Counted from the first letter of the stretch, positions 5,234 to 49,473 are shown. The stretch is DNA of 64,000 bases from Puniceicoccales bacterium (GCA_031255715.1 JAIRRZ010000021.1:286-64285); one strand, 5' to 3'. Notes: generated by a model from the letters alone, not told the origin. A program made the numbers and translations.

Positions 5234-6904
5234 CTATTCGCTGCGATCGATATCAATTTTATCAAAAATATCGCCCAAATTAGTCAATTCTTGATCACTT
5301 TTTAATTTGTCATAGGCTTTAATTTCAGCCTCGAGTGCGTTGGCATCGTAGTTTGCGACCTTAATGGATAGCCCAATGCGGCGTTCATTGCGATCAATTT
5401 TGATCACACGAGCCGTAACTTCATTGCCAATCGATAGCACATCTTTAATCTTCTCGACGTGATTTTCAGAAATTTGACTGATATGAATCATGCCATCGAT
5501 ACCGTGTGGCAGTTCAACAAATGCACCGTACGAGGTAATTTTGACTATTTTCCCCGTCACTAAACTGCTAATTTGGAAAAGTGCATCGATATTTTCCCAG
5601 GGATCATTCATCAGTTGTTTTATGCCAAGAGCAATACGTTGCTGGGTAGGATCGATGTCAATGACAATGGCATCAACCATATCACCTTTCCTCAAAACTT
5701 CGCTGGGATGATTAACTTTTTTTGTCCAGCTGATATCCGAAACGTGAATCATACCATCAATACCTTCTTCCAATTCAACGAAAGCTCCGTAGTTAGTGAT
5801 ATTGCGAACGGCTCCACGTATATGTGCACCCACGGGATAATTATGTTTCACCATTTCCCAAGGATTTTCATCGAGTTGTTTAATACCAAGTGCAATTTTT
5901 TGGTTTCCTTTTTCGATACCAATTACAACGGCTTCGATTTCAGTGCCGACTTTCAATAATTCACTGGGCTTATTAATGCGTTTCGTCCAAGACATTTCCG
6001 CCACGTGAACAAGACCTTCTACACCCGGCTCAATTTCAATAAAGGCTCCATAGGGTACAAGATTGACTACTTTACCATGAATTTTACTACCGAGAGGATA
6101 GCGGTATTCGATATTATCCCAAGGATTATTTTTAGTCTGCTTCATACCAAGGGCTACACGCTCCTTTTCAGGATCGATTTCAAGGACCATGACTTCGATT
6201 TCTTCGCCTACGCGGACCAATTCATTGGGATGCGATACCCTTCCCCAGGACATATCGGTAATGTGTAAAAGTCCATCGAGACCATCTAAGTCGACGAATA
6301 CACCGTAATCGGTAATATTTTTGACAATACCATGGCATATCGCACCGACTTGGATATTGGACATGGCCTTCTGTCGTTTATCTTTACGCTCTTCTTCAAT
6401 GAGCTCGCGCCGCGAAATAACAATATTCTTGCGTTCCAAATTAATCTTAACGATCTTAAAGTCGAAAGTTTGGCCGATATACTGATCGAGGTTTTTTTGA
6501 GCCTGAATATCAATTTGAGATCCGGGTAGAAAAGCATCAACACCGATATTGACTATTAAACCGCCCTTTGTTTTCGACTTAACTTTACCATGAACGATGG
6601 AACCTTCAGGACAAGTTTCAATGATACGGGCCCAGTTTTTTTTCTGTTCCGCCTTATCAAAGGAAATAATAGGATTTCCTTCCCGGTCCTCAAGTTTTTC
6701 AAGAAAAACATCGATGGTCTGTCCTACCGAAAATTCATTAACATCATTAAACTCAATTGCAGGAATTTTTCCTTCCGTTTTTGTTCCAATATCGACGACA
6801 ATAGTATTATCGCCAATCTCCGTTATGATCGCTGGAATTACTGTACCTGGAAGCAGCTCCTTGATAGGTTTTTCTTCCAGTAATTTTTCCATTATATTTG
6901 ACAT
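5234..6904 (-). CDS. rpsA: 30S ribosomal protein S1 (six S1 domains)
   Basis: Six repeats of G.V..I..YGAFV.L..G..G(L/M)(L/I)H.S(D/E). The length of 556 aa is typical. Confidence 0.95.
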   Translation of the reverse strand: MSNIMEKLLEEKPIKELLPGTVIPAIITEIGDNTIVVDIGTKTEGKIPAIEFNDVNEFSVGQTIDVFLEKLEDREGNPIISFDKAEQKKNWARIIETCPEGSIVHGKVKSKTKGGLIVNIGVDAFLPGSQIDIQAQKNLDQYIGQTFDFKIVKINLERKNIVISRRELIEEERKDKRQKAMSNIQVGAICHGIVKNITDYGVFVDLDGLDGLLHITDMSWGRVSHPNELVRVGEEIEVMVLEIDPEKERVALGMKQTKNNPWDNIEYRYPLGSKIHGKVVNLVPYGAFIEIEPGVEGLVHVAEMSWTKRINKPSELLKVGTEIEAVVIGIEKGNQKIALGIKQLDENPWEMVKHNYPVGAHIRGAVRNITNYGAFVELEEGIDGMIHVSDISWTKKVNHPSEVLRKGDMVDAIVIDIDPTQQRIALGIKQLMNDPWENIDALFQISSLVTGKIVKITSYGAFVELPHGIDGMIHISQISENHVEKIKDVLSIGNEVTARVIKIDRNERRIGLSIKVANYDANALEAEIKAYDKLKSDQELTNLGDIFDKIDIDRSE

Positions 6905-7029
6905 GAATTATACTCCACTGGGGAGGTTAAGGGTTTATATATGTAACATCACCGTGATATTACTACTTGGGAAAGGATTTCAAAAAATAAAATTAGGCAA
7001 GATATAAAATATATTTTTAATAAATTACC

Positions 7030-7247
7030 AGAGGGCCCCAATGGGCTCCGCCACATACCTCACGAGGAATCATAGATTCCTTGACTTCGGAATTATCGCA
7101 AAACTTCGCATAATTAGGCCCTATGGTTTTTATAAACTCCCCCAACTGCCGCCACTACCGGATGTTACCCGAGGTGGCGGCCAAAATCCAAGTCTAAGGA
7201 AGGCATCCCCTAGCGGCAATCTCCAAGGGCACACCCTTTTTTTCACA
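7030..7247. repeat. GC-rich intergenic repeat element, copy 1
   Basis: It shares modules with copies at 44936 and 61397: TTCCTTGACTTCGG, a long GC hairpin (GCCGCCAC...GTGGCGGC), ATCCCCT(A/G)G, and a terminal AAGGG-N-CCCTT hairpin followed here by T7. Confidence 0.6.
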
Positions 7248-7301: not shown

Positions 7302-8480
7302 CTAAGCATTTCTCACAAAATAGGTTTGCAATGGAGGGAATCCATTGAACCCCACGGCACAATAACTTGCCGTATAAGCACCCGTCGTCAGCCAATAAAC
7401 GCGAGAACCAATACTAATATTCTGCGGTAAAGGATTGCGAAAATTTTCATACAGGATATCCTGGCTATCGCAGGTTGGTCCTGCAATAATAAAATCGTCG
7501 CTCAAAGGTCCTTTTATCCCACAATAGAGTGGATATTTTAAGCTTTCTCCAATGGTCTCAATTAAACCATTAAATGTGCCAGTATCTAGATAAACCCAAC
7601 GATCTACGCCAACTCGCGATTTCTGTGAAATAAGCACTACTTCCGTCACCAAGACCCCAGCTCCTGCAACCAAGGAACGTCCCGGTTCCATGACGACTTC
7701 CAATGGATTTTCTTCGGAAAAATCTTCACGCAAATAGCGAGTAATCTCTTGGGCATATACATCAATATCGCACGTTTTATTAATATATCGCGCTGGTAAT
7801 CCACCACCCATATTAATTAATGTCAAAGGGATTCCCGCATCCTTTAAGTAGTTAAAAATGTAGCGAGCTTTAGCAATGGAAGAATCCCAGGCACCGATAT
7901 CACGCTGCTGAGAGCCAACGTGAAAGGATACACCGCATGGCTCTAAATGTAATTTTTGAGCTAGTAATAAAAGATCAATTGCCATGTCTGGATGGCAACC
8001 AAATTTGCGAGATAATGGCCAATCTGCCGTATCTGCACCTTCCGATGAAATACGAATAAAAATACGCGATTTGGGCGCCGCTAGGGCAAGATTGCGCAAG
8101 TCTGCTTCACTATCCGACACAAAAAGTTGAACACCTTTTTCATAGGCATATTCAATGTGCGAAACTTTTTTTATAATATTTCCATAGCTCATGCGATCAG
8201 GTGAAACGCCGATATTTAGCAAAATATCCATTTCATAGATAGAAGCGATATCAAAGAAACTCCCAAGGTCACGTAACAATTCTAAAACCGGTAGAGACGG
8301 ATTTGCTTTGACTGGATAATATATTGAAGCATAGGGAAAGCACTCCTTCATCCTAAAATAATTACGTCTAATGGTATCTAAATTGATCACAAGAAAAGGC
8401 GTTTCATGTTTGTCGGCCTCGGCTAACATCGTTTGCCAATCAACAGCCTCATAGTATTCAAGAGGGTTACATTTCATCAT
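7302..8480 (-). CDS. PLP-dependent ornithine/lysine decarboxylase (alanine-racemase-fold, group IV)
   Basis: YYPVKANP (PLP Lys), HVGSQ, GGGLP, EPGRSLV and GPTCDSQD (ODC-type rather than LysA CESGD) are present. Confidence 0.8.
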   Translation of the reverse strand: MMKCNPLEYYEAVDWQTMLAEADKHETPFLVINLDTIRRNYFRMKECFPYASIYYPVKANPSLPVLELLRDLGSFFDIASIYEMDILLNIGVSPDRMSYGNIIKKVSHIEYAYEKGVQLFVSDSEADLRNLALAAPKSRIFIRISSEGADTADWPLSRKFGCHPDMAIDLLLLAQKLHLEPCGVSFHVGSQQRDIGAWDSSIAKARYIFNYLKDAGIPLTLINMGGGLPARYINKTCDIDVYAQEITRYLREDFSEENPLEVVMEPGRSLVAGAGVLVTEVVLISQKSRVGVDRWVYLDTGTFNGLIETIGESLKYPLYCGIKGPLSDDFIIAGPTCDSQDILYENFRNPLPQNISIGSRVYWLTTGAYTASYCAVGFNGFPPLQTYFVRNA

Positions 8481-8667
8481 CTATTATTTTTCAGAAAATT
8501 ATTACAACCAATGCCTTCTTTTAGCCGTATTTTTTTGTTTGTAAAGATTTTTTAATAATAAAATAGAATTATCAATGAAACTGAGCCCATCTGACCGCAT
8601 TATCGAACATCGCCCGTGGCAAGAGTCGTAATCCGGGCCAGAGATAGATCTAGAGATCCTAAAGCTT

Positions 8668-11421
8668 TTAGGATCTTTCTTCTAATGCGGCTTGGGCAGC
8701 GGCAATTTTTGCCACAGGGATGCGATTAGGTGCGCAACTTACATAATCTAAACCAAGACTATGACAAAATTTTATGGAATCTGGATCGCCACCATGCTCC
8801 CCACAAATTCCAATCTTTACGCCAGGTCGTACTCTGCGGGCTTTTGTCACACCGATTCCCATGAGCTGTCCAACACCTTCCACATCAATGGACGCGAATG
8901 GGTTGCGCTTGACGACCTCCTGAGAGATATACTCTGGCAAAAATGTTCCCGAGTCATCACGGCTCATTCCTAAAGTCGTTTGCGTTAAATCATTCGTTCC
9001 AAAACTGAAAAATTCCGCCGTTTCAGCGATTTTATCCGCTACCAAGGCTGCACGGGGTAGTTCCAACATTGTTCCCACCGCATAGTTAAATTTTTTGCCG
9101 GTCCTATTCATAACTTCATCGGCCGCACTTCGAATACGTTCGACCTGACTTTTTAATTCACCCTCAAATCCTACGAGCGGTACCATAACTTCAACTTTAA
9201 CATCGATACCTTCCGAAACAGCTTGAGCAACGGCTTCAAAAATAGCCAAGGCTTGCATGGTTGTAATTTCTGGATAGGTCATTCCTAACCGACAACCGCG
9301 GTGACCGAGCATCGGATTTTGCTCATGTAACGCTTGGACACGTGCCCCTATGTGTTCCATAGGGATATTAAATTTTTTTGATAAAGCATCCAAAGCATCG
9401 TCCGTATTCGGTAAAAATTCGTGTAATGGCGGATCCAATAGGCGGATTGTAACCGGTTGTCCCTTCATTGCTCTAAAAAGTCCTTCGAAATCTCCGCGTT
9501 GGAGCGGTTTCAAGTGATCCAAAGCTTTGATGCGATCCTCCATTGTCGTTGCTAAAATCATTTTACGTACAAAATCGATGCGATCCTCCTCAAAAAACAT
9601 GTGTTCCGTACGGCATAAACCAATCCCCTCCGCACCTAATTGAAAGGCTTGTGCAGCCTGTTTAGGTGTATCCGCATTGGTACGAATACCAAGCTTACGA
9701 AATCCATCAGCCCAGTCCATCACCATAGCGAATAGGCGATAGGTATCGCTATTTTCTGCCTTCATGTTGCCGGCCAGCACACGGTTAACTTCGGAAGGCA
9801 CGGTGGCCACTTTCCCGGAAAACACTTCACCCGTCGTTCCGTCGATTGAAATATAATCGCCCTCCTTTATTATCGTTTCGCTAACCTGAATTGTTTTCGA
9901 TACATAGTCGATGTGCAGCGTTCCCGCTCCACAAACACAGACCTTCCCCATCTGTCTCGCTACCAACGCCGCATGGGAACTGACACCACCTCGGCTCGTT
10001 AGAATGCCTTCCGATGTCAGCATGCCGCGGATATCCTCCGGTGAAGTCTCGATGCGGCAAAGGACAACTTTCTCGCCCTGTGCATGGATTTCCTCCGCTT
10101 TTTTAGCGGAAAAGTAGACTTTTCCACAGGCCGCTCCCGGTCCTGCCGGTAATCCAATGGCTAATTTTTTTAAATTCTTTTTCTCCGCTTCATCGAAGAC
10201 GGGAACAAGCAGTGACGAAATCGAATCCGCTGGAATACGTCTAACCGCCTCCTCTTTGGAAATGCGTCCCTCATCGACCATTTCCACCGCAATGCGCACC
10301 GCCGCTAAACCCGTCCGTTTCCCGTTACGCGTCTGTAGCATGTAGAGTTTATCCTGTTCAATGGTAAATTCCAGATCCTGCATATCGCAGAAATGATCCT
10401 CCAATGTTTTGCAAACGGAGATCAATTGTTCAAAAACTTTGGGCATATCATTTTTGAGTGCGCTAATGGGTCGTGGCGTGCGAATTCCAGCAACAACATC
10501 TTCGCCTTGGGCATTGATCAAATACTCGCCATAAAATTCATGCATACCATTAGCGGGATTTCGCGTAAATGCCACACCGGTTGCGCAATTATCGCCCATA
10601 TTTCCGAACACCATCGATTGGACATTGACCGCTGTTCCCCACTCCGACGGAATATTATATTTTTGGCGATAAATAACTGCGCGCTCGTTATTCCAAGACC
10701 TAAAAACGGCACCGATTGCACCTTCTAACTGGGCGTAAACATCCTGTGGAAATTCCGCTCCGACAGATTTTTTAATTAAATCTTTGTATCGTCGGATTAA
10801 CTCTTGGAGCTGCTCCGCGGTCAGGTCGACATCATTCTGGATATTGACTTCTTGCTTCAGCTGTCCCAATACGGCATCGAACGGTTCCTCATCGCGGTCA
10901 TCGGTAGCCTGAACTCCCATGACTACATCGCCGTACATTTGAATAAATCGGCGGTAGCAATCATAGGCGAAGCGAGGATTATTTGTGTGTTTTGCAAAAC
11001 CTTGAACGCTTTGATCATTGAGTCCGAGGTTAAGAATTGTATCCATCATACCGGGCATTGAGTCGCGTGCTCCGGAACGAACGGAAAACAAAAGTGGATT
11101 TTCAAGATCACCAAATTTCTTCCCCTGTTGAGCTTCAACATTTTTAATCGCCACTTTAACCTGATCAAAAACGTAGGCGGGCAATTTTTCGCCATTTGCT
11201 TTAAATTCGGCACAAACTTCCGTTGTGATCGTAAATCCCGGTGGAACGGGTAATCCAATGCGAGCCATTTCGGCTAAATTTGCACCTTTGCCCCCCAGTA
11301 AAGAACGCATCGTCGCATTGCCATCCGTTTTTTGGCCGAATTCGTATATCTTACTATGATCAGACATGCTCCAATTAAATTGTTCTGGAACCCCAACGTC
11401 AACTTTTTTTGACATCAACAT
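8668..11421 (-). CDS. ppdK: Pyruvate, phosphate dikinase
   Basis: [12 protein letters not shown], the catalytic-His loop [26 protein letters not shown] and CGEHGGDP are present. The start is uncertain (11421, 11415 or 11367). Confidence 0.95.
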
Positions 11422-13050: not shown

Positions 13051-13089
13051 AATTTTAGAATAAAAGCAAGTATTTTTTTATTGGATTAT

Positions 13090-13108
13090 TAGGGGCTGCG
13101 TGCCCTTA
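13090..13108. repeat. Solo copy of the AAGGGC-N4-GCCCTT-type hairpin module
   Basis: TAGGGGCTGCGTGCCCTTA has the same form as the terminal hairpins of the GC-rich elements at 45112-45130 and 61404-61422. Confidence 0.4.
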
Positions 13109-13226
13109 GACATCCTCTGATAAGAAAATTTCATAAGAAAAAAAAACTCCCCTTTGCAAATCGTACCGCAGATAAATTTTGTACAAATATTTCTAGTCAA
13201 AAGAAACGGGAATCTTATGGTGAGCA

Positions 13227-27063: not shown

Positions 27064-27160
27064 TGGACTGGGTACTATGCAACTTAGAACCGACTAACTC
27101 CGCCAGGTCTGGAAAGAAGCAACGGTCGTCAGGAATCGAGTGTGCCGTAGATTGCCTAGT
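27064..27160 (+). ncRNA. ffs: Signal recognition particle RNA (small 4.5S type)
   Basis: The domain IV core GCCAGGUCUGGAAAGAAGCAACGG....GAGUGUGCCG matches the E. coli 4.5S CCAGGUCCGGAAGGAAGCAGCC...GUGUGCCG. The 5' GGACUGGGUA pairs with the 3' UGCCUAGUC. A T8 run follows. Confidence 0.8.
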
Positions 27161-27365
27161 CTTCTTTTTTTACATGCACTTTTCTAAAAATTGCTTTTAT
27201 TAGGATTTTTCTACGATATTTAGAATTTTTCTATAATGGATCGTACTATTTCATAATTCCATTTCGGGAGAATATTTCTTTCAAAAACACAATTGTGAAA
27301 ATTTAATTTAATTTAATTTTTGACCTTTTTTACGATTTCACTATAAACTCCCTAAGGATAGTGTT

Positions 27366-30014
<2,649 letters not shown>

Positions 30015-42711: not shown

Positions 42712-43006
42712 TCTTTTAATTGAAATTTTATTATACACATGAACTTTTTATCATACGCATATTAATCGATCCCTATACACGCCTATAGGATTTGCTACCA
42801 GCTCCCATAAAGAAGCTCCCCCTATGGAGCGCTTCTGAAAAAATATTTTTACTCAAAGCAAAACACACATTTCAAAGACTAGCCCAAATATTCCGTACAT
42901 GAGCTAGAGTAATTCTAAAATCGTAACTAACGGCTTAAATTCGATCTACTCAAGTATGAATCCAAGTATAATTTCAAAAAATCAAAATCCACGCCATTGT
43001 AAAAAC

Positions 43007-43608: not shown

Positions 43609-44901
43609 CTATTTTTTTCGACTCGCCCTAAAGTTTTTCAATTCGCGAAAGTGTTCTGCCAAAATTTTTTCGGCACCGATTTCCTTCGGTTCATAAAATT
43701 TCTTCGACGTTAACATATATTCCTGCCCAGAAATGTTCCAATCGAAATCATGGCTGTACTGGTAAAATTTTCCATGCTGCAGTTTCTTCGATGCCATACC
43801 ATGTGCATCGCGTAGCCAAATCGGAACCGGCTCTTTCCCATGCTTTTTGATGTAAGCCATTGCTGCCTCCAATGCCAAATATGTCGAATTGCTCTTGGGC
43901 GCTAATGCACAAAATACAGTCGTGTGCGCCAAATTTAATCGGCACTCCGGCAATCCAATGCGCTCGCAGGCATCAAAACATGCATTGGCTACTAATATCG
44001 CCCGCGAATCCGCCAAACCTATGTCCTCTGAAGCAATGATCAATAGCCGCCGCGCTATAAATCGCGGATCTTCACCCCCCTCTAACATCACCGCTAACCA
44101 GTAAATCGCCGCATCCGGATCACACCCCCTAATACTTTTTATATATGCAGAAATTGTATTGTAATGTTCGTCCTCATCGGCATCATAGGTCACCTGCTGC
44201 TTGAATAAAAATTTTTCTGCTTGTTCAATAGTAATCAATGTTCCCGTCGGTGTATTGAGTACAATCGCTTCCAGAATATTGAGCGCCCTTCGCGAATCGC
44301 CATTGCACTGCTCCGCAATAAGATTAAGTGCATTCGCTTCAAAAGTACATCGCATACTCCCCAGTCCACGCTCGCAATCGACCAAAGCATTTTTTAATAT
44401 ATTTATAATTGATTCATTCGATAGCGGCTCTAATTCAATTAAATGACAGCGACTAAGCAATGGATTGATAATGTAAAAACCCGGATTATGCGTAGTCGCA
44501 CCAATTAACTGAATGGTTCCCGTTTCAACATCGGGAAGTAAAAGGTCCTGTTGCGATTTGTTGAAACGATGAATTTCGTCAATAAATAAAATGGTCCGTG
44601 CCAATGGATCACATTGGGCTGATTTTAGAGTTTCACGCAATTCGGTAACATTCGATAAAACAGCATTAATTTTTATAAAACGACGTTTTTCTTCACTGGC
44701 AATCGCTTCCGCAATGGACGTCTTTCCACTGCCCGGTGGACCATATAAAATTACGCTCCCTAGTGACTGGTTGCGTACAAGATCGACGAAAGGCGATCGC
44801 ATGAGCACATCTTGCCCAATAATTTCATCGAGATGGCGCGGACGCATGCGTACGGCCAATGGTCCCGAACGCATACAACAGGTCTCAAAAAATTCCGTCA
44901 T
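43609..44901 (-). CDS. rarA: Replication-associated recombination protein A (RarA/MgsA)
   Basis: PLAVRMRP..LDEIIGQ, GPPGSGKTS and LFIDEIHRFNKSQQD are present, with a C-terminal MgsA domain. The start may be 44901 (ATG), 44874, or TTG 44919. Confidence 0.9.
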   Translation of the reverse strand: MTEFFETCCMRSGPLAVRMRPRHLDEIIGQDVLMRSPFVDLVRNQSLGSVILYGPPGSGKTSIAEAIASEEKRRFIKINAVLSNVTELRETLKSAQCDPLARTILFIDEIHRFNKSQQDLLLPDVETGTIQLIGATTHNPGFYIINPLLSRCHLIELEPLSNESIINILKNALVDCERGLGSMRCTFEANALNLIAEQCNGDSRRALNILEAIVLNTPTGTLITIEQAEKFLFKQQVTYDADEDEHYNTISAYIKSIRGCDPDAAIYWLAVMLEGGEDPRFIARRLLIIASEDIGLADSRAILVANACFDACERIGLPECRLNLAHTTVFCALAPKSNSTYLALEAAMAYIKKHGKEPVPIWLRDAHGMASKKLQHGKFYQYSHDFDWNISGQEYMLTSKKFYEPKEIGAEKILAEHFRELKNFRASRKK

Positions 44902-44935: not shown

Positions 44936-45142
44936 AAATGGTAGAGTTCTCAGAGAGCGAAACCTTCTGAACTCCCGCAAGAATCCATGGACTCCTTGAC
45001 TTCGGTACGCAGCTTCTCCGGAGGGCCCCAGGATCCCTCGGTCGTCCGGCACCTTGGGCGATGCCGGACAGATATCCAGCTCCAAGGGACAAATCCCCTG
45101 GACCTGGATTTTAAGGGCGCGCAGCCCTTAGGGCAAAAATAT
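44936..45142. repeat. GC-rich intergenic repeat element, copy 2 (same orientation as copy 1)
   Basis: CTCCTTGACTTCGG, hairpin GTCCGGCA-N10-TGCCGGAC, ATCCCCTGG, and terminal hairpin TAAGGGC-GCGC-AGCCCTTA (45112-45130) are present. Confidence 0.65.
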
Positions 45143-45545
45143 CGAACCAGGAAAGTTTTTCCACAAGTGTTTGTGTTGCAAAAATTGGAAATTGATTAAT
45201 AAGTGCAAGGGCAATGGCATCACTTGGACGCGCATCAAGGCATAGAAGAGTTCCTTTATTATTCAGAATAATCTTTGCAAAAAAAATTCCTTCGAAGGTA
45301 TCATCGATAACAATGGCTTGAACCGTAGCACCGAGAGCAGTAATACAATTCGAAAGTAACGTAAACGTATTGGGACGCTTAGCTATTTGTTTTTTTAGAA
45401 GATCGCGAAGAAGATTACCTGCTTCAACTGAAACATGAATCGGAAAACTTTTCCCATTAGTATGATTTTGCATAATCAGGGAAGAAGCCCCACTGGAAAA
45501 AACGATATCAGAAACAGAAATCCCAACCAAATCAACATAAACCAT
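45111..45545 (-). CDS. Bifunctional nuclease (BFN/DUF151) family protein
   Basis: LDARPSDAIALAL..FPIF is the signature. The last 7 codons (ALRAARP) and the stop lie inside the terminal hairpin of repeat copy 2. Confidence 0.75.
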   Translation of the reverse strand: MVYVDLVGISVSDIVFSSGASSLIMQNHTNGKSFPIHVSVEAGNLLRDLLKKQIAKRPNTFTLLSNCITALGATVQAIVIDDTFEGIFFAKIILNNKGTLLCLDARPSDAIALALINQFPIFATQTLVEKLSWFDIFALRAARP

Positions 45546-48051: not shown

Positions 48052-49473
48052 ATGGATTACAAAATTCTAAATAAAAAAATACAATTAACAACCTTTTTCC
48101 TAGCTATTCCATTTTACATCAGTTTACAGGCAAGTGAGGAAGATGTTGGGAATGATCTGCAACCTTCGAGGAGGCATAACCCAATTTTACCCTCAGACCA
48201 AGCATCACAAACACTCATTGGTCAAACTAAACGCACAACATTAACTCCCAAAGAAAAGCAAATATCGAAATTAATAGGACGTCAATTTTTTCAATTGAGG
48301 AACAATGATATCGCTAGCAGAAGTCCATCCATCGGTCTATACGCTCTTGTAGCCATTGAACAAAAATCCAGCAATGATGAGAAAAACGGCCAACCAATCA
48401 CACTAGAATATGATGAACTTAAGCAAACTATAGCACAAATTTTTCCTAACAATCCAAAACCGCTTAGTGTGAAAATCGATCCCCATTTTGTTCAACAAAT
48501 TGCCGAAAAGACTAACATGTCTATTCTTTTCATTCATATAGGAAATAGAGGCTGTTCCTACGGCCCAGGTCCCATAGATATTGTCAAACGGATCATTTTT
48601 GTGAAGCGGGACGGAAAAGTTTTAACGCAAAACTCATGGTTTTTTGATGATCATTTAATAAATGATATCATTAATATCATTAGCCAATGCGGTTCTAACA
48701 CTGCAGTCGTTTGTTACAATAGTCATCTCGGGCGTACCGTATTTTCAACGCCAAATGGTCAAATTTTCGCTATATCACAGAAAGCTAATGCTCAAACACG
48801 GTCTCATCAAACAGCAATTGTTAATATCTCCAAAAAACGTACAATTAGGAATATCGGTCTTTCAGCATCTTTGTTAGCTGTGATATATGTTTTGAAAAAA
48901 ATCGTATTGCCAACGATCACGCAATATCAAAATTCCATGAATTTTACGGAAATTGTACAGCCACTGAAGCAAAAAGCTTCGCAACTTTTTGATCAAATTT
49001 CCATGAATTTTACGAAAACTGTACAGTTAGTGAAGCAAAAAGCTTCGCACCTTTTTGATCAAATTATTCCATCATCAGATTCTTCCTGTAGCCAAGCATG
49101 TGAATCCTCTTCAATGCCCAATTCAACAGCAACTCCGTCGCCCTCTCCTAGCCCGGTGTTGGGATCCTCTTCAATGCCCAATTCAACAGCAACTCCGTCG
49201 CCCTCTCCTAGTCCGGTGTTGGGATCCTCTTCAATACCCAATTCAACAGCAACTCCGTCGCCCTCTCCTAGCCCGGTGTTGGGATCCTCTCCAATACCCA
49301 ATCCAACAACAACTCCGTCGCCCTCTCCTAGTCCGGTGTTGGGATCCTCTCCAATACCCACAACAACAACTCCGTCGCCCTCTCCTGACCCAGCGCAGAA
49401 ATCCTCTTTAATGCTCACAATCCAACAGCAACTCCATCGCTTTTTCCCGGCCTTGCACGTGAATCCTTTCTAA
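48052..49473 (+). CDS. Secreted/membrane-anchored hypothetical protein with a Pro/Ser/Thr-rich repeat tail
   Basis: The signal peptide is ...LTTFFLAIPFYISLQA|SEE. An internal TM reads IGLSASLLAVIYVLKKIVL. A 22-aa duplication (SMNFTEIVQPLKQKASQLFDQI x2, 48934-49065) is followed by 20-aa repeats SSSMPNSTATPSPSPSPVLG. Confidence 0.75.
   Translation: MDYKILNKKIQLTTFFLAIPFYISLQASEEDVGNDLQPSRRHNPILPSDQASQTLIGQTKRTTLTPKEKQISKLIGRQFFQLRNNDIASRSPSIGLYALVAIEQKSSNDEKNGQPITLEYDELKQTIAQIFPNNPKPLSVKIDPHFVQQIAEKTNMSILFIHIGNRGCSYGPGPIDIVKRIIFVKRDGKVLTQNSWFFDDHLINDIINIISQCGSNTAVVCYNSHLGRTVFSTPNGQIFAISQKANAQTRSHQTAIVNISKKRTIRNIGLSASLLAVIYVLKKIVLPTITQYQNSMNFTEIVQPLKQKASQLFDQISMNFTKTVQLVKQKASHLFDQIIPSSDSSCSQACESSSMPNSTATPSPSPSPVLGSSSMPNSTATPSPSPSPVLGSSSIPNSTATPSPSPSPVLGSSPIPNPTTTPSPSPSPVLGSSPIPTTTTPSPSPDPAQKSSLMLTIQQQLHRFFPALHVNPF
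49104..49390. repeat. 60-bp in-frame tandem repeat (about 4.7 copies)
   Basis: Sequence lines 49141, 49201, 49261 and 49321 are nearly superimposable, giving an exact 60-bp period. Confidence 0.9.

Follow-up and report, generated by a model that had tools for sequence, protein, structure and literature searches.

A probable family of modular palindromic DNA repeats confined to a few related Puniceicoccales genomes

The window analysed here is a stretch of 64,000 nucleotides from a Puniceicoccales bacterium (GCA_031255715.1 JAIRRZ010000021.1:286-64285), and the element in question is a GC-rich chain of hairpins at 44941-45137. Our results show that it belongs to a multi-copy family that is confined to a few related Puniceicoccales metagenome-assembled genomes (MAGs). 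We think it likely that the copies are non-autonomous DNA repeats, modular and palindromic, that are restricted to one lineage and are selfish elements rather than regulatory RNAs. The family is new and undescribed; the class it falls into is an ordinary one, functionally closest to BOX elements, bacterial interspersed mosaic elements (BIMEs) and miniature inverted-repeat transposable elements (MITEs). The sequence material consists of the one 64 kb window and about 200 kb of related loci, which we cite by locus number (L030 and so on), and all site counts are small.

Results

The copy in question (c2, plus strand) is 197 bp long and has a GC content of 58%. An earlier note on this DNA had reported three full copies in the window, and all three are present: c1 at 7028-7247 (plus strand), c2, and c3 at 61397-61610 (minus strand). 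Their GC content ranges from 51% to 59%, in a window of 41% GC. When a hidden Markov model (HMM) is built from c2 and c3 and nothing else, it detects c1 (7065-7232) with E=2.4e-5. Furthermore, a gapped pattern made of the three shared motifs TCCTTGAC, ATCCCCT and AAGGGC matches exactly c1, c2 and c3 in the window and matches in none of 100 dinucleotide shuffles. Hence, the similarity between the copies does not fall below random expectation. The longer forms of two of these motifs that had been described as common to the copies, TCCTTGAC(Y)TC and ATCCCCT(R)G, were also found.

The copies in the window are at different stages of decay. A ten-sequence profile that includes copies from other genomes (the family HMM) gives c3 131 bits and c2 124 bits (both E <1e-37) and c1 37 bits (E=5e-11). 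In BLAST comparisons, c2 and c3 have blocks of 26 and 19 nt in common, and c1 shares just a 13-mer. The sequence of c2 is identical in an independent read-assembly contig, so that it is not an assembly artefact.

The element is a chain of independent hairpins, and the full copies are collinear: P0, P1, interior palindromes, P5 and P6. P0 reads GGGGC-TCC-GCCCC with variable outer pairs and is followed by the linker ACCCCG. P1 (CAAGGAGTC-nnn-GACTCCTTG) runs into TTGACC. Between P1 and P5 lie one to four interchangeable, long, near-perfect GC-rich palindromes, which vary by subfamily (AGAGTCCCGCGGCG(A/C)AGCCGCGGGACTCT; GGCCGGTACCACGGGCGATGCCCGTGGTACCGGCC); the interior stems in the window are GTCCGGCAC...GTGCCGGAC or GCCGCCAC...GTGGCGGC. 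This agrees with the earlier observation that the long GC stems differ in sequence and are still paired. P5 is CCAGGGGA-TGGA-TCCCCTGG, bracketed by ATCC/GGAT, and P6 is (C)TAAGGGC-nnnnn-GCCCTTA(G). A terminal AAGGGC-N4-GCCCTT hairpin, as first described, does exist; its loop, however, is 5 nt long in c2 and c3, and the 4-nt loop of c1 sits on a stem of 5 bp. Hairpin loops are mostly 3 nt long (GAA, GAT, TCC, TTC, GCA).

A single element is about 150–310 bp long, and the cluster in L033 spans about 680 bp from its first 5' module to its last 3' module (1949-2632). What varies among copies is the number and identity of the internal hairpins, together with partial duplications of the end modules, commonly a 5' module upstream or a unit of half a P5 plus P6 downstream. 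It had been suggested that module order differs between copies. This rested on one shared 10-mer, GAGGGCCCCA, and does not hold: alignments of 18 5' modules and 14 3' modules, drawn from several genomes, consistently show the backbone in the order P0, P1, variable interior, P5 and P6. The mosaic part of the element is its interior, not the order of its modules.

We also made covariance models (CMs) of both end modules (R1 and R2) and ran them unfiltered on the window; their E-values are rough. Each end-module CM matches the opposite end on the opposite strand (E of 0.002 and 0.02). A local alignment of the two end-module consensuses yields p ~0.024 in inverted orientation and no similarity in direct orientation. 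Judged from these alignments, the ends appear to have a degenerate inverted symmetry and no sharp terminal inverted repeat (TIR).

The family has a narrow distribution. We scanned a collection holding one genome per prokaryotic species with exact patterns only, a search that would miss diverged copies and distant hosts. Of the 22 matches to the gapped pattern, six lie in four MAGs named Puniceicoccales bacterium, namely Nc350_bin186, Ncb351_bin30, Gsp477_bin70 and Cc175_bin33; these six can be aligned with c2 and c3 over their entire length. The remaining 16 come from a variety of unrelated phyla and are close to the number of chance matches (about 17) that we estimated when designing the pattern. 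The MgsA/RarA protein encoded in the window is 85% identical to proteins named Puniceicoccales. In two of these four MAGs the name prefix, Gsp477 or Ncb351, stands for a metagenome from the gut of a lower termite, Glyptotermes and Neotermes cubanus respectively (PMC11707648).

A 20-mer from P5 also had six matches in a metagenome scan. All six lie on contigs of 60–70% GC and are limited to the 20-mer itself, and we therefore take them to be chance matches. Scans of viral contigs with the P1 and P5 patterns and a blastn search of the PLSDB plasmids with a canonical copy returned nothing. The matches to the family in the genome collection all come from non-autonomous copies. Within the related loci, density is uneven: L033 has four sites in 7 kb, and the canonical element is missing from L031, L032 and L037 (21 kb each) and from L036 (13 kb). 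Copies arranged in tandem arrays, as well as lone modules, are present in L008, L030, L033 and L038, the array in L008 comprising three copies.

The neighbours of the copies are unrelated housekeeping genes: rpsA, a pyridoxal phosphate (PLP)-dependent decarboxylase gene, mgsA, a BFN-domain nuclease gene, yidC, yebC, hprK, dnaN, fabH, priA, ligA, a secretin gene, proS, topA, thrS and an ABC ATPase gene. The roughly 25 sites in the window and the related loci all lie between genes, at most taking in the last codons of one. Just one of them, a partial copy, lies between divergent genes, as does a marginal hairpin at 13.1 kb of the window. Of the 14 sites that include a 3' module, about 11 have their P6 end at a distance of 0–25 nt from the stop codon of a gene in the opposite orientation, and CTAAGGGC sometimes provides that gene's stop codon. 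The 5' flanks display a loose preference for YCC and no defined target.

As noted earlier, all full copies in the window sit between two genes on the same strand. c2 is antisense to both its neighbours, the BFN-domain gene (45111-45545, minus strand) and mgsA/rarA (43609-44901, minus strand). c1 is likewise antisense to rpsA (5234-6904, minus strand) and to an ornithine/diaminopimelate (PLP) decarboxylase gene (7302-8480, minus strand). c3 is in sense orientation, between the gene of a 473-aa orphan protein (61696-63117, minus strand) and an AAA_28 gene (60739-61365, minus strand). Counting full copies between tandem genes, five are antisense (c1 and c2 included) and two are sense (c3 and the L033 cluster); fragments with a 5' module only are sense. 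The trend in orientation is not significant. Contigs often end in a copy (L033, L034, L038, L021), as would be expected if the repeats break assemblies.

Comparing orthologous sites shows that they differ in the presence of the element, in its copy number and in its hairpin content. Relatives with an MgsA of 84–85% identity share the gene order glmS-BFN-mgsA. In the spacer between the BFN gene and mgsA, the window has one copy and L030 has two tandem copies of about 310 bp plus remnants; the same spacer in L031, L032 and L036 has no canonical copy. The mgsA-proximal flank TCTACCATTTACA is common to the window and L030, so that the copies there probably descend from one insertion.

At this site the element overwrote the 3' end of the conserved BFN gene, both in the window and in L030. 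The BFN proteins of L031, L032 and L036 end in ...IQTPNT(F/S)FLC(H/R). The protein encoded in the window ends in ...DIFALRAARP, its last seven codons and the stop being the reverse complement of P6. In L030 the BFN gene ends inside another P6-like hairpin, with a different junction.

The BFN-mgsA spacers of L031 (9835-9960) and L032 (9875-9929) hold a nested hairpin cluster of about 80 nt with TCCTTGACCTTCTT, which looks unrelated. It carries the TCCTTGACC box in opposite orientation and, also in opposite orientation, ATCTCCTTGACCTTCTT, which matches the 5' box of the L007 copies at 14 of 14 positions. The spacer of L036 was read by length alone and has the same length. The cluster goes undetected by the family HMM and was found at this site alone in our sample. 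L031 also has GATGTCCATGGATTT twice in tandem.

Other sites point the same way. Downstream of the decarboxylase gene, L033 and L034 (protein 90% identical) have copies oriented as c1, with P6 0–4 nt from the stop codon; at the same site in L035 (protein 81% identical) there is no copy. In L021 an element lies 2 nt past the stop codon of a sigma-54 activator gene, and the orthologous gene in the window is followed by an AT-rich spacer with no trace of it. Orthologous copies in L034 and L038, flanked by a protein that is 95% identical, differ by the insertion or deletion of a whole hairpin and also in P5. In two or more places, moreover, a double substitution is mirrored in the two arms (GCGCA/TGCGC to GTGCA/TGCAC and GGATTG/CAATCC to GGTTTG/CAAACC).

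Base pairing is indeed kept while the sequence changes, as had been claimed. In the 5' module seven of the 15 pairs have changed on both sides (18 cells), a value that none of 500 column shuffles attains and that exceeds all slid controls. Two pairs of P6 have compensatory changes, and P5, which is otherwise invariant, is CCAGGAGGC/GCCTCCTGG in L034. The stems are near-perfect Watson-Crick helices with 54–116 pairs per copy and a predicted stability of −95 to −215 kcal/mol for each copy. The 31 single mismatches include four G-T on the element strand versus ten A-C, a difference that is not significant; a preference for G-U on the top strand is not seen. Compared with shuffled sequences, the whole-element fold has z=−6.8 for c3, z=−2.8 for c1 and z=−1.1 for c2.

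Signals of an RNA gene are scarce. An Rfam scan of the window at gathering thresholds has no family match over the elements, and the best match in E-value scans of c2, c3 and the L008 array is sX13 with 28.5 bits against a gathering threshold of 50. Promoter scans of the copies revealed no shared promoter-like site. Terminator scans found none in c2 and c3, and most copies have no T-tract after any hairpin. c1 does end in a hairpin with a T-run, AAGGGCACACCCTT plus T7.

A coding function was considered and rejected: the open reading frames (ORFs) that cover the elements are short and not the same from copy to copy, and insertion or deletion of hairpins disrupts them. Short ORFs over the repeat occur in the window at 61420-61686 (minus strand, 88 aa), in L030 at 9223-9517 and in L033 at 2096-2479; the latter two are called in public gene tables, and the one in the window was listed mechanically. 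They are most likely spurious products of GC-rich hairpin arrays.

Copies, fragments and other features of the window

The modules of the three full copies can be placed as follows. In c2 a degenerate P0 (44946-44972) is followed by P1 (44978-44998), the TTGAC box (44993-45003), internal hairpins (45000-45039 and 45044-45069), P5 (45076-45107) and P6 (45112-45130). c1, of about 220 bp and 51% GC, is the most decayed copy in the window; it has a half-P0 (7028-7042), P0 (7041-7056), P1 (7064-7083), internal hairpins (7091-7115 and 7148-7181), P5 (7194-7213) and P6 (7225-7238), all on the plus strand like those of c2. c3 (214 bp, 59% GC) is nearest to the family consensus, with P0 (61573-61595), P1 (61545-61569), internal hairpins (61511-61545 and 61461-61497), P5 (61427-61457) and P6 (61403-61423) on the minus strand. 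It is bracketed by an inverted repeat of 9–10 bp (61596-61605/61397-61405; ATATGGCTAG / TAGCCATAT), which closes the whole predicted fold and is seen in no other copy. This repeat could be due to chance, or c3 could have inserted into a pre-existing palindrome.

Of the fragments proposed earlier, the one at 63205-63270 is genuine. It is a partial copy with 5' modules only (63196-63274, minus strand), consisting of a half-P0 (63259-63274), P0 (63242-63258) and P1 (63216-63235). The HMM matches it at 63210-63262 with E=1.2e-6, within a 5' module at 63207-63264. CM R2 gives it 58 bits, a score that is not independent support because the fragment is in the R2 seed alignment. The fragment is in sense orientation just 3' of the stop codon of a gene at 63278-63970 (minus strand) and ends with a short GACC/GGTC hairpin plus T8 (63196-63216). 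Thus the 473-aa orphan protein is flanked by family copies on both sides. It has no Pfam domain and no homologue except itself in a set of 5.8 billion proteins; it corresponds to the hypothetical protein LBH08_01985 [Puniceicoccales bacterium].

The fragment proposed at 13090-13108 is marginal. It would be a solo P6-like terminal hairpin, TTAGGGGCTGCGTGCCCTTAG (13086-13125, minus strand), in a divergent intergenic region, with an HMM E-value of 0.03–0.05 (13090-13116) and a CM R1 score of 16.9 bits (rough E ~0.002). Two tentative fragments found no support: at 42800-42840 the 3'-module CM reaches only E=2.4 (42780-42838), and at 8580-8650 neither the HMM nor either end-module CM has a match.

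The window also holds a tRNA-Asp(GTC) (2428-2504) and a bacterial small signal recognition particle RNA (27066-27164), its sole Rfam and ARAGORN matches. Ankyrin-repeat proteins are encoded at 46-954 and 32708-34345, among other places. The relatives L030-L032 have ankyrin clusters, a CesT-type chaperone and flagellar/type III secretion system export genes, a gene content that suggests a eukaryote-associated lifestyle of the clade.

Several other repeats lie in ORFs. A tract of 74–86% GC (29319-29793) with repeats of period 3, 9 and 48, for example (CGCCGCCTC)n, is part of an 882-aa ORF (27366-30014, plus strand) without a Pfam domain and is probably a low-complexity coding repeat. Two large ORFs on the minus strand are filled with tandem repeats, one at 34637-36757 (706 aa) and one at 37047-41729 (1560 aa). 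One of them contains 15-bp units, (CGATCGTCGGGTTCC)n, nested in higher-order repeats of 159–426 bp, and the other repeats of 57 bp (x3.3) and 438 bp (x1.9). Tandem repeats also occur at 32957-33368 (72 bp x5.6, in an ankyrin protein gene) and at 49104-49440 (60 bp x5.6, in the ORF 48052-49473).

Discussion

We propose that the element spreads by multiplication of its DNA. An enzyme of which the sequence examined shows no trace may mobilise it in trans, with single-stranded hairpins as intermediates. Alternatively, it may spread by local duplication and by recombination between hairpins. Copies would survive only where insertion is harmless, that is just after stop codons and away from promoters. 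When co-transcribed, their hairpins would probably act only passively, as structure in the 3' untranslated region (UTR).

Covariation is usually the kind of evidence that one would bring forward for an RNA, so that our reading of it needs to be explained. In quasi-palindromes, template switching corrects one arm against the other and thereby produces mirrored changes. We infer that the stems stay paired through such arm-against-arm correction of mismatches and not because an RNA needs them. Covariation would then be a property of hairpin-forming DNA. We prefer this reading because the stems are near-perfectly Watson-Crick paired, the copies lie in mixed orientation, hairpins are gained and lost, and copies decay.

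A number of observations weigh against a selfish, mobile repeat. First, Pfam searches reveal no transposase, RAYT or other mobilising gene among the ORFs of the window or in the roughly 200 kb of related loci; the Pfam matches in the ORFs of the window and of six MAG loci are to housekeeping and ankyrin proteins only. RAYT is the Y1 HUH transposase that mobilises repetitive extragenic palindromes (REPs). Second, no direct repeat that would mark a target-site duplication (TSD) is visible in the flanks, and there is no clean empty site, the element-free orthologous spacers holding other sequence. The differences between sites could have arisen from recombination, duplication and deletion alone, without active transposition. 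Third, the end modules, P5 and P1 especially, are far better conserved than the interior, which would also fit a function at the protein or RNA level. Fourth, P6 often lies right at stop codons, where it might have a selected role in the 3' UTR.

This last point leads to an alternative that we regard as unlikely: the copies could be primarily functional 3'-end elements, selected by the host because they terminate transcription, insulate neighbouring genes or shield mRNAs from 3'-5' exonucleases. Their position just past stop codons and their strong depletion between divergent genes would be expected, their GC-rich stems are predicted to be very stable in a genome of 41% GC, and c1 as well as the fragment at 63 kb end in a hairpin and a T-run. 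However, in most copies a T-tract is missing after the hairpins, the corresponding gene ends in close relatives are free of the element, and the copies in the window are decaying. Moreover, purifying selection against all other insertions in a compact genome predicts the position at stop codons equally well.

One could also go further than a selfish repeat of a familiar kind. The family might represent non-autonomous mobile elements of a new type, which would travel as hairpins of single-stranded DNA, with P1, P5 and P6 recognised by an as yet unrecognised enzyme of the Verrucomicrobiota. The interior would then be a cassette for the exchange of palindromes that is kept perfect by template switching; or the end modules might be relics of, or even now act as, a transposon-encoded guide-type RNA. 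We consider this proposal decidedly improbable.

A structured non-coding RNA family seems to us very improbable. The earlier note had left room for such an RNA, and under this explanation the elements would be trans-acting small RNAs or transposon-derived guide-like RNAs, with functional P0/P1 and P5/P6 and an interior of variable expansion segments. Hairpins maintained by compensatory changes, the strongly conserved sequences of P1, P5 and P6, and the fold of c3 are what one would expect of an RNA. Nevertheless, no Rfam family comes near its threshold, the copies share no promoter, and c2 and c3 lack a terminator. The stems are almost perfectly Watson-Crick paired, and their mismatches (four G-T versus ten A-C) carry no strand-specific G-U bias. 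Copies take either orientation relative to the flanking genes, some stand in tandem, some are truncated to an end module, and some overlap coding sequence; orthologous copies gain and lose entire hairpins, and the copies in the window decay, with 37 bits for c1 and a fold of z=−1.1 for c2.

Finally, a chance likeness of unrelated GC-rich, terminator-like hairpins or an assembly artefact could be suspected from the few short exact words that c1 has in common with c2 and c3 and from c2 folding no better than shuffles, and is refuted with near certainty by the cross-validated HMM detection of c1, the shuffles without a single pattern match, the identical c2 in an independent assembly and the collinear homologues in several other MAGs.

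The family is worth masking and annotating in these Puniceicoccales MAGs, where it breaks assemblies, as the many copies at contig ends indicate, and yields spurious ORF calls. It has also rewritten the C-terminus of a conserved nuclease-domain (BFN) protein. The double changes between close relatives form a natural data set in which template switching can be set against selection at the RNA level, and they call for caution, since covariation alone is no proof of a functional RNA. Otherwise the family is a lineage-specific selfish repeat of a familiar kind.

Comparison with known repeat classes

The idea that the copies form a REP- or MITE-like family of hairpin repeats holds up in its general form, given the copies in relatives, the differences in presence and copy number at orthologous sites, both orientations, the arrays and the fragments. 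The specific analogies to REPs and to the palindromic elements of Rickettsia (RPEs) fail: there is no GTAG or CGTC tag, there is no in-frame insertion inside an ORF, and a TSD is not demonstrable.

A REP is a palindrome of 20–40 bp that is tagged at one end by GTAG or CGTC, and such tagged REPs are reported as abundant in the verrucomicrobium Opitutus terrae (Di Nocera et al. 2013, PMC3733652). Like REPs, BIMEs and REPINs, our elements are GC-rich extragenic palindromes that are lineage specific, form mosaic arrays and lie at gene 3' ends in both orientations. High copy number and an extragenic location enriched at gene 3' ends, as in REPs, hold for our roughly 25 sites. In contrast to REPs, none of 99 hairpins of at least 6 bp taken from 19 copies has a GTAG foot, and only two have a CGTC foot. 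A REP is also a single repeated palindrome, whereas here different hairpins follow each other in a fixed 5'-to-3' order between conserved end modules.

RPEs are typically inserted in frame inside ORFs. They resemble our family in being GC-richer palindromes in an AT-rich, host-associated bacterium that can add coding sequence. Our copies, however, lie between genes and replace no more than the final codons of one (c2 and L030), and they come from an unrelated taxon.

MITEs such as Correia/NEMIS of Neisseria and RUP of the pneumococcus are similar in size, non-coding and multi-copy, with a degenerate inverted symmetry of the ends in our case; insertion-deletion polymorphism and the ability to alter gene ends are further likenesses. 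Unlike MITEs, the family has no clear perfect TIR, no identified TSD and no known parent insertion sequence, and its interior consists of exchangeable palindromes.

Palindrome-associated transposable elements (PATEs) are non-autonomous derivatives of the IS200/IS605 single-strand transposons. Our elements share with them subterminal hairpins at both ends (P0/P1 and P5/P6, with compensatory changes) and the lack of an obvious TSD, and the hairpin-centred layout is compatible with single-stranded DNA intermediates. In contrast to PATEs, no conserved flanking tetra- or pentanucleotide target can be defined, the hairpins on the left have other sequences than those on the right, and neither a TnpA nor a TnpB gene was found in the window and the 200 kb of related loci.

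Another close counterpart is BOX of Streptococcus pneumoniae, which is built as boxA-boxB(n)-boxC, is 67–637 bp long (our elements extend over about 150–610 bp) and has been judged parasitic with a slow turnover (Croucher et al. 2011, PMC3049150). Both are small, non-coding, modular repeats with conserved ends, a variable number of internal modules and lone modules; both have extensive predicted stem-loops, are restricted to a species group and occasionally change gene ends. There are differences as well. Each module of our element is a perfect hairpin of its own, whereas in BOX boxA pairs with boxC; the internal modules are several different palindromes instead of one repeated boxB; and a TIR and TSD are reported for BOX, whereas the TIR is weak here. 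A relation in sequence is not to be expected between different phyla, with a GC-rich element in an AT-rich genome on our side.

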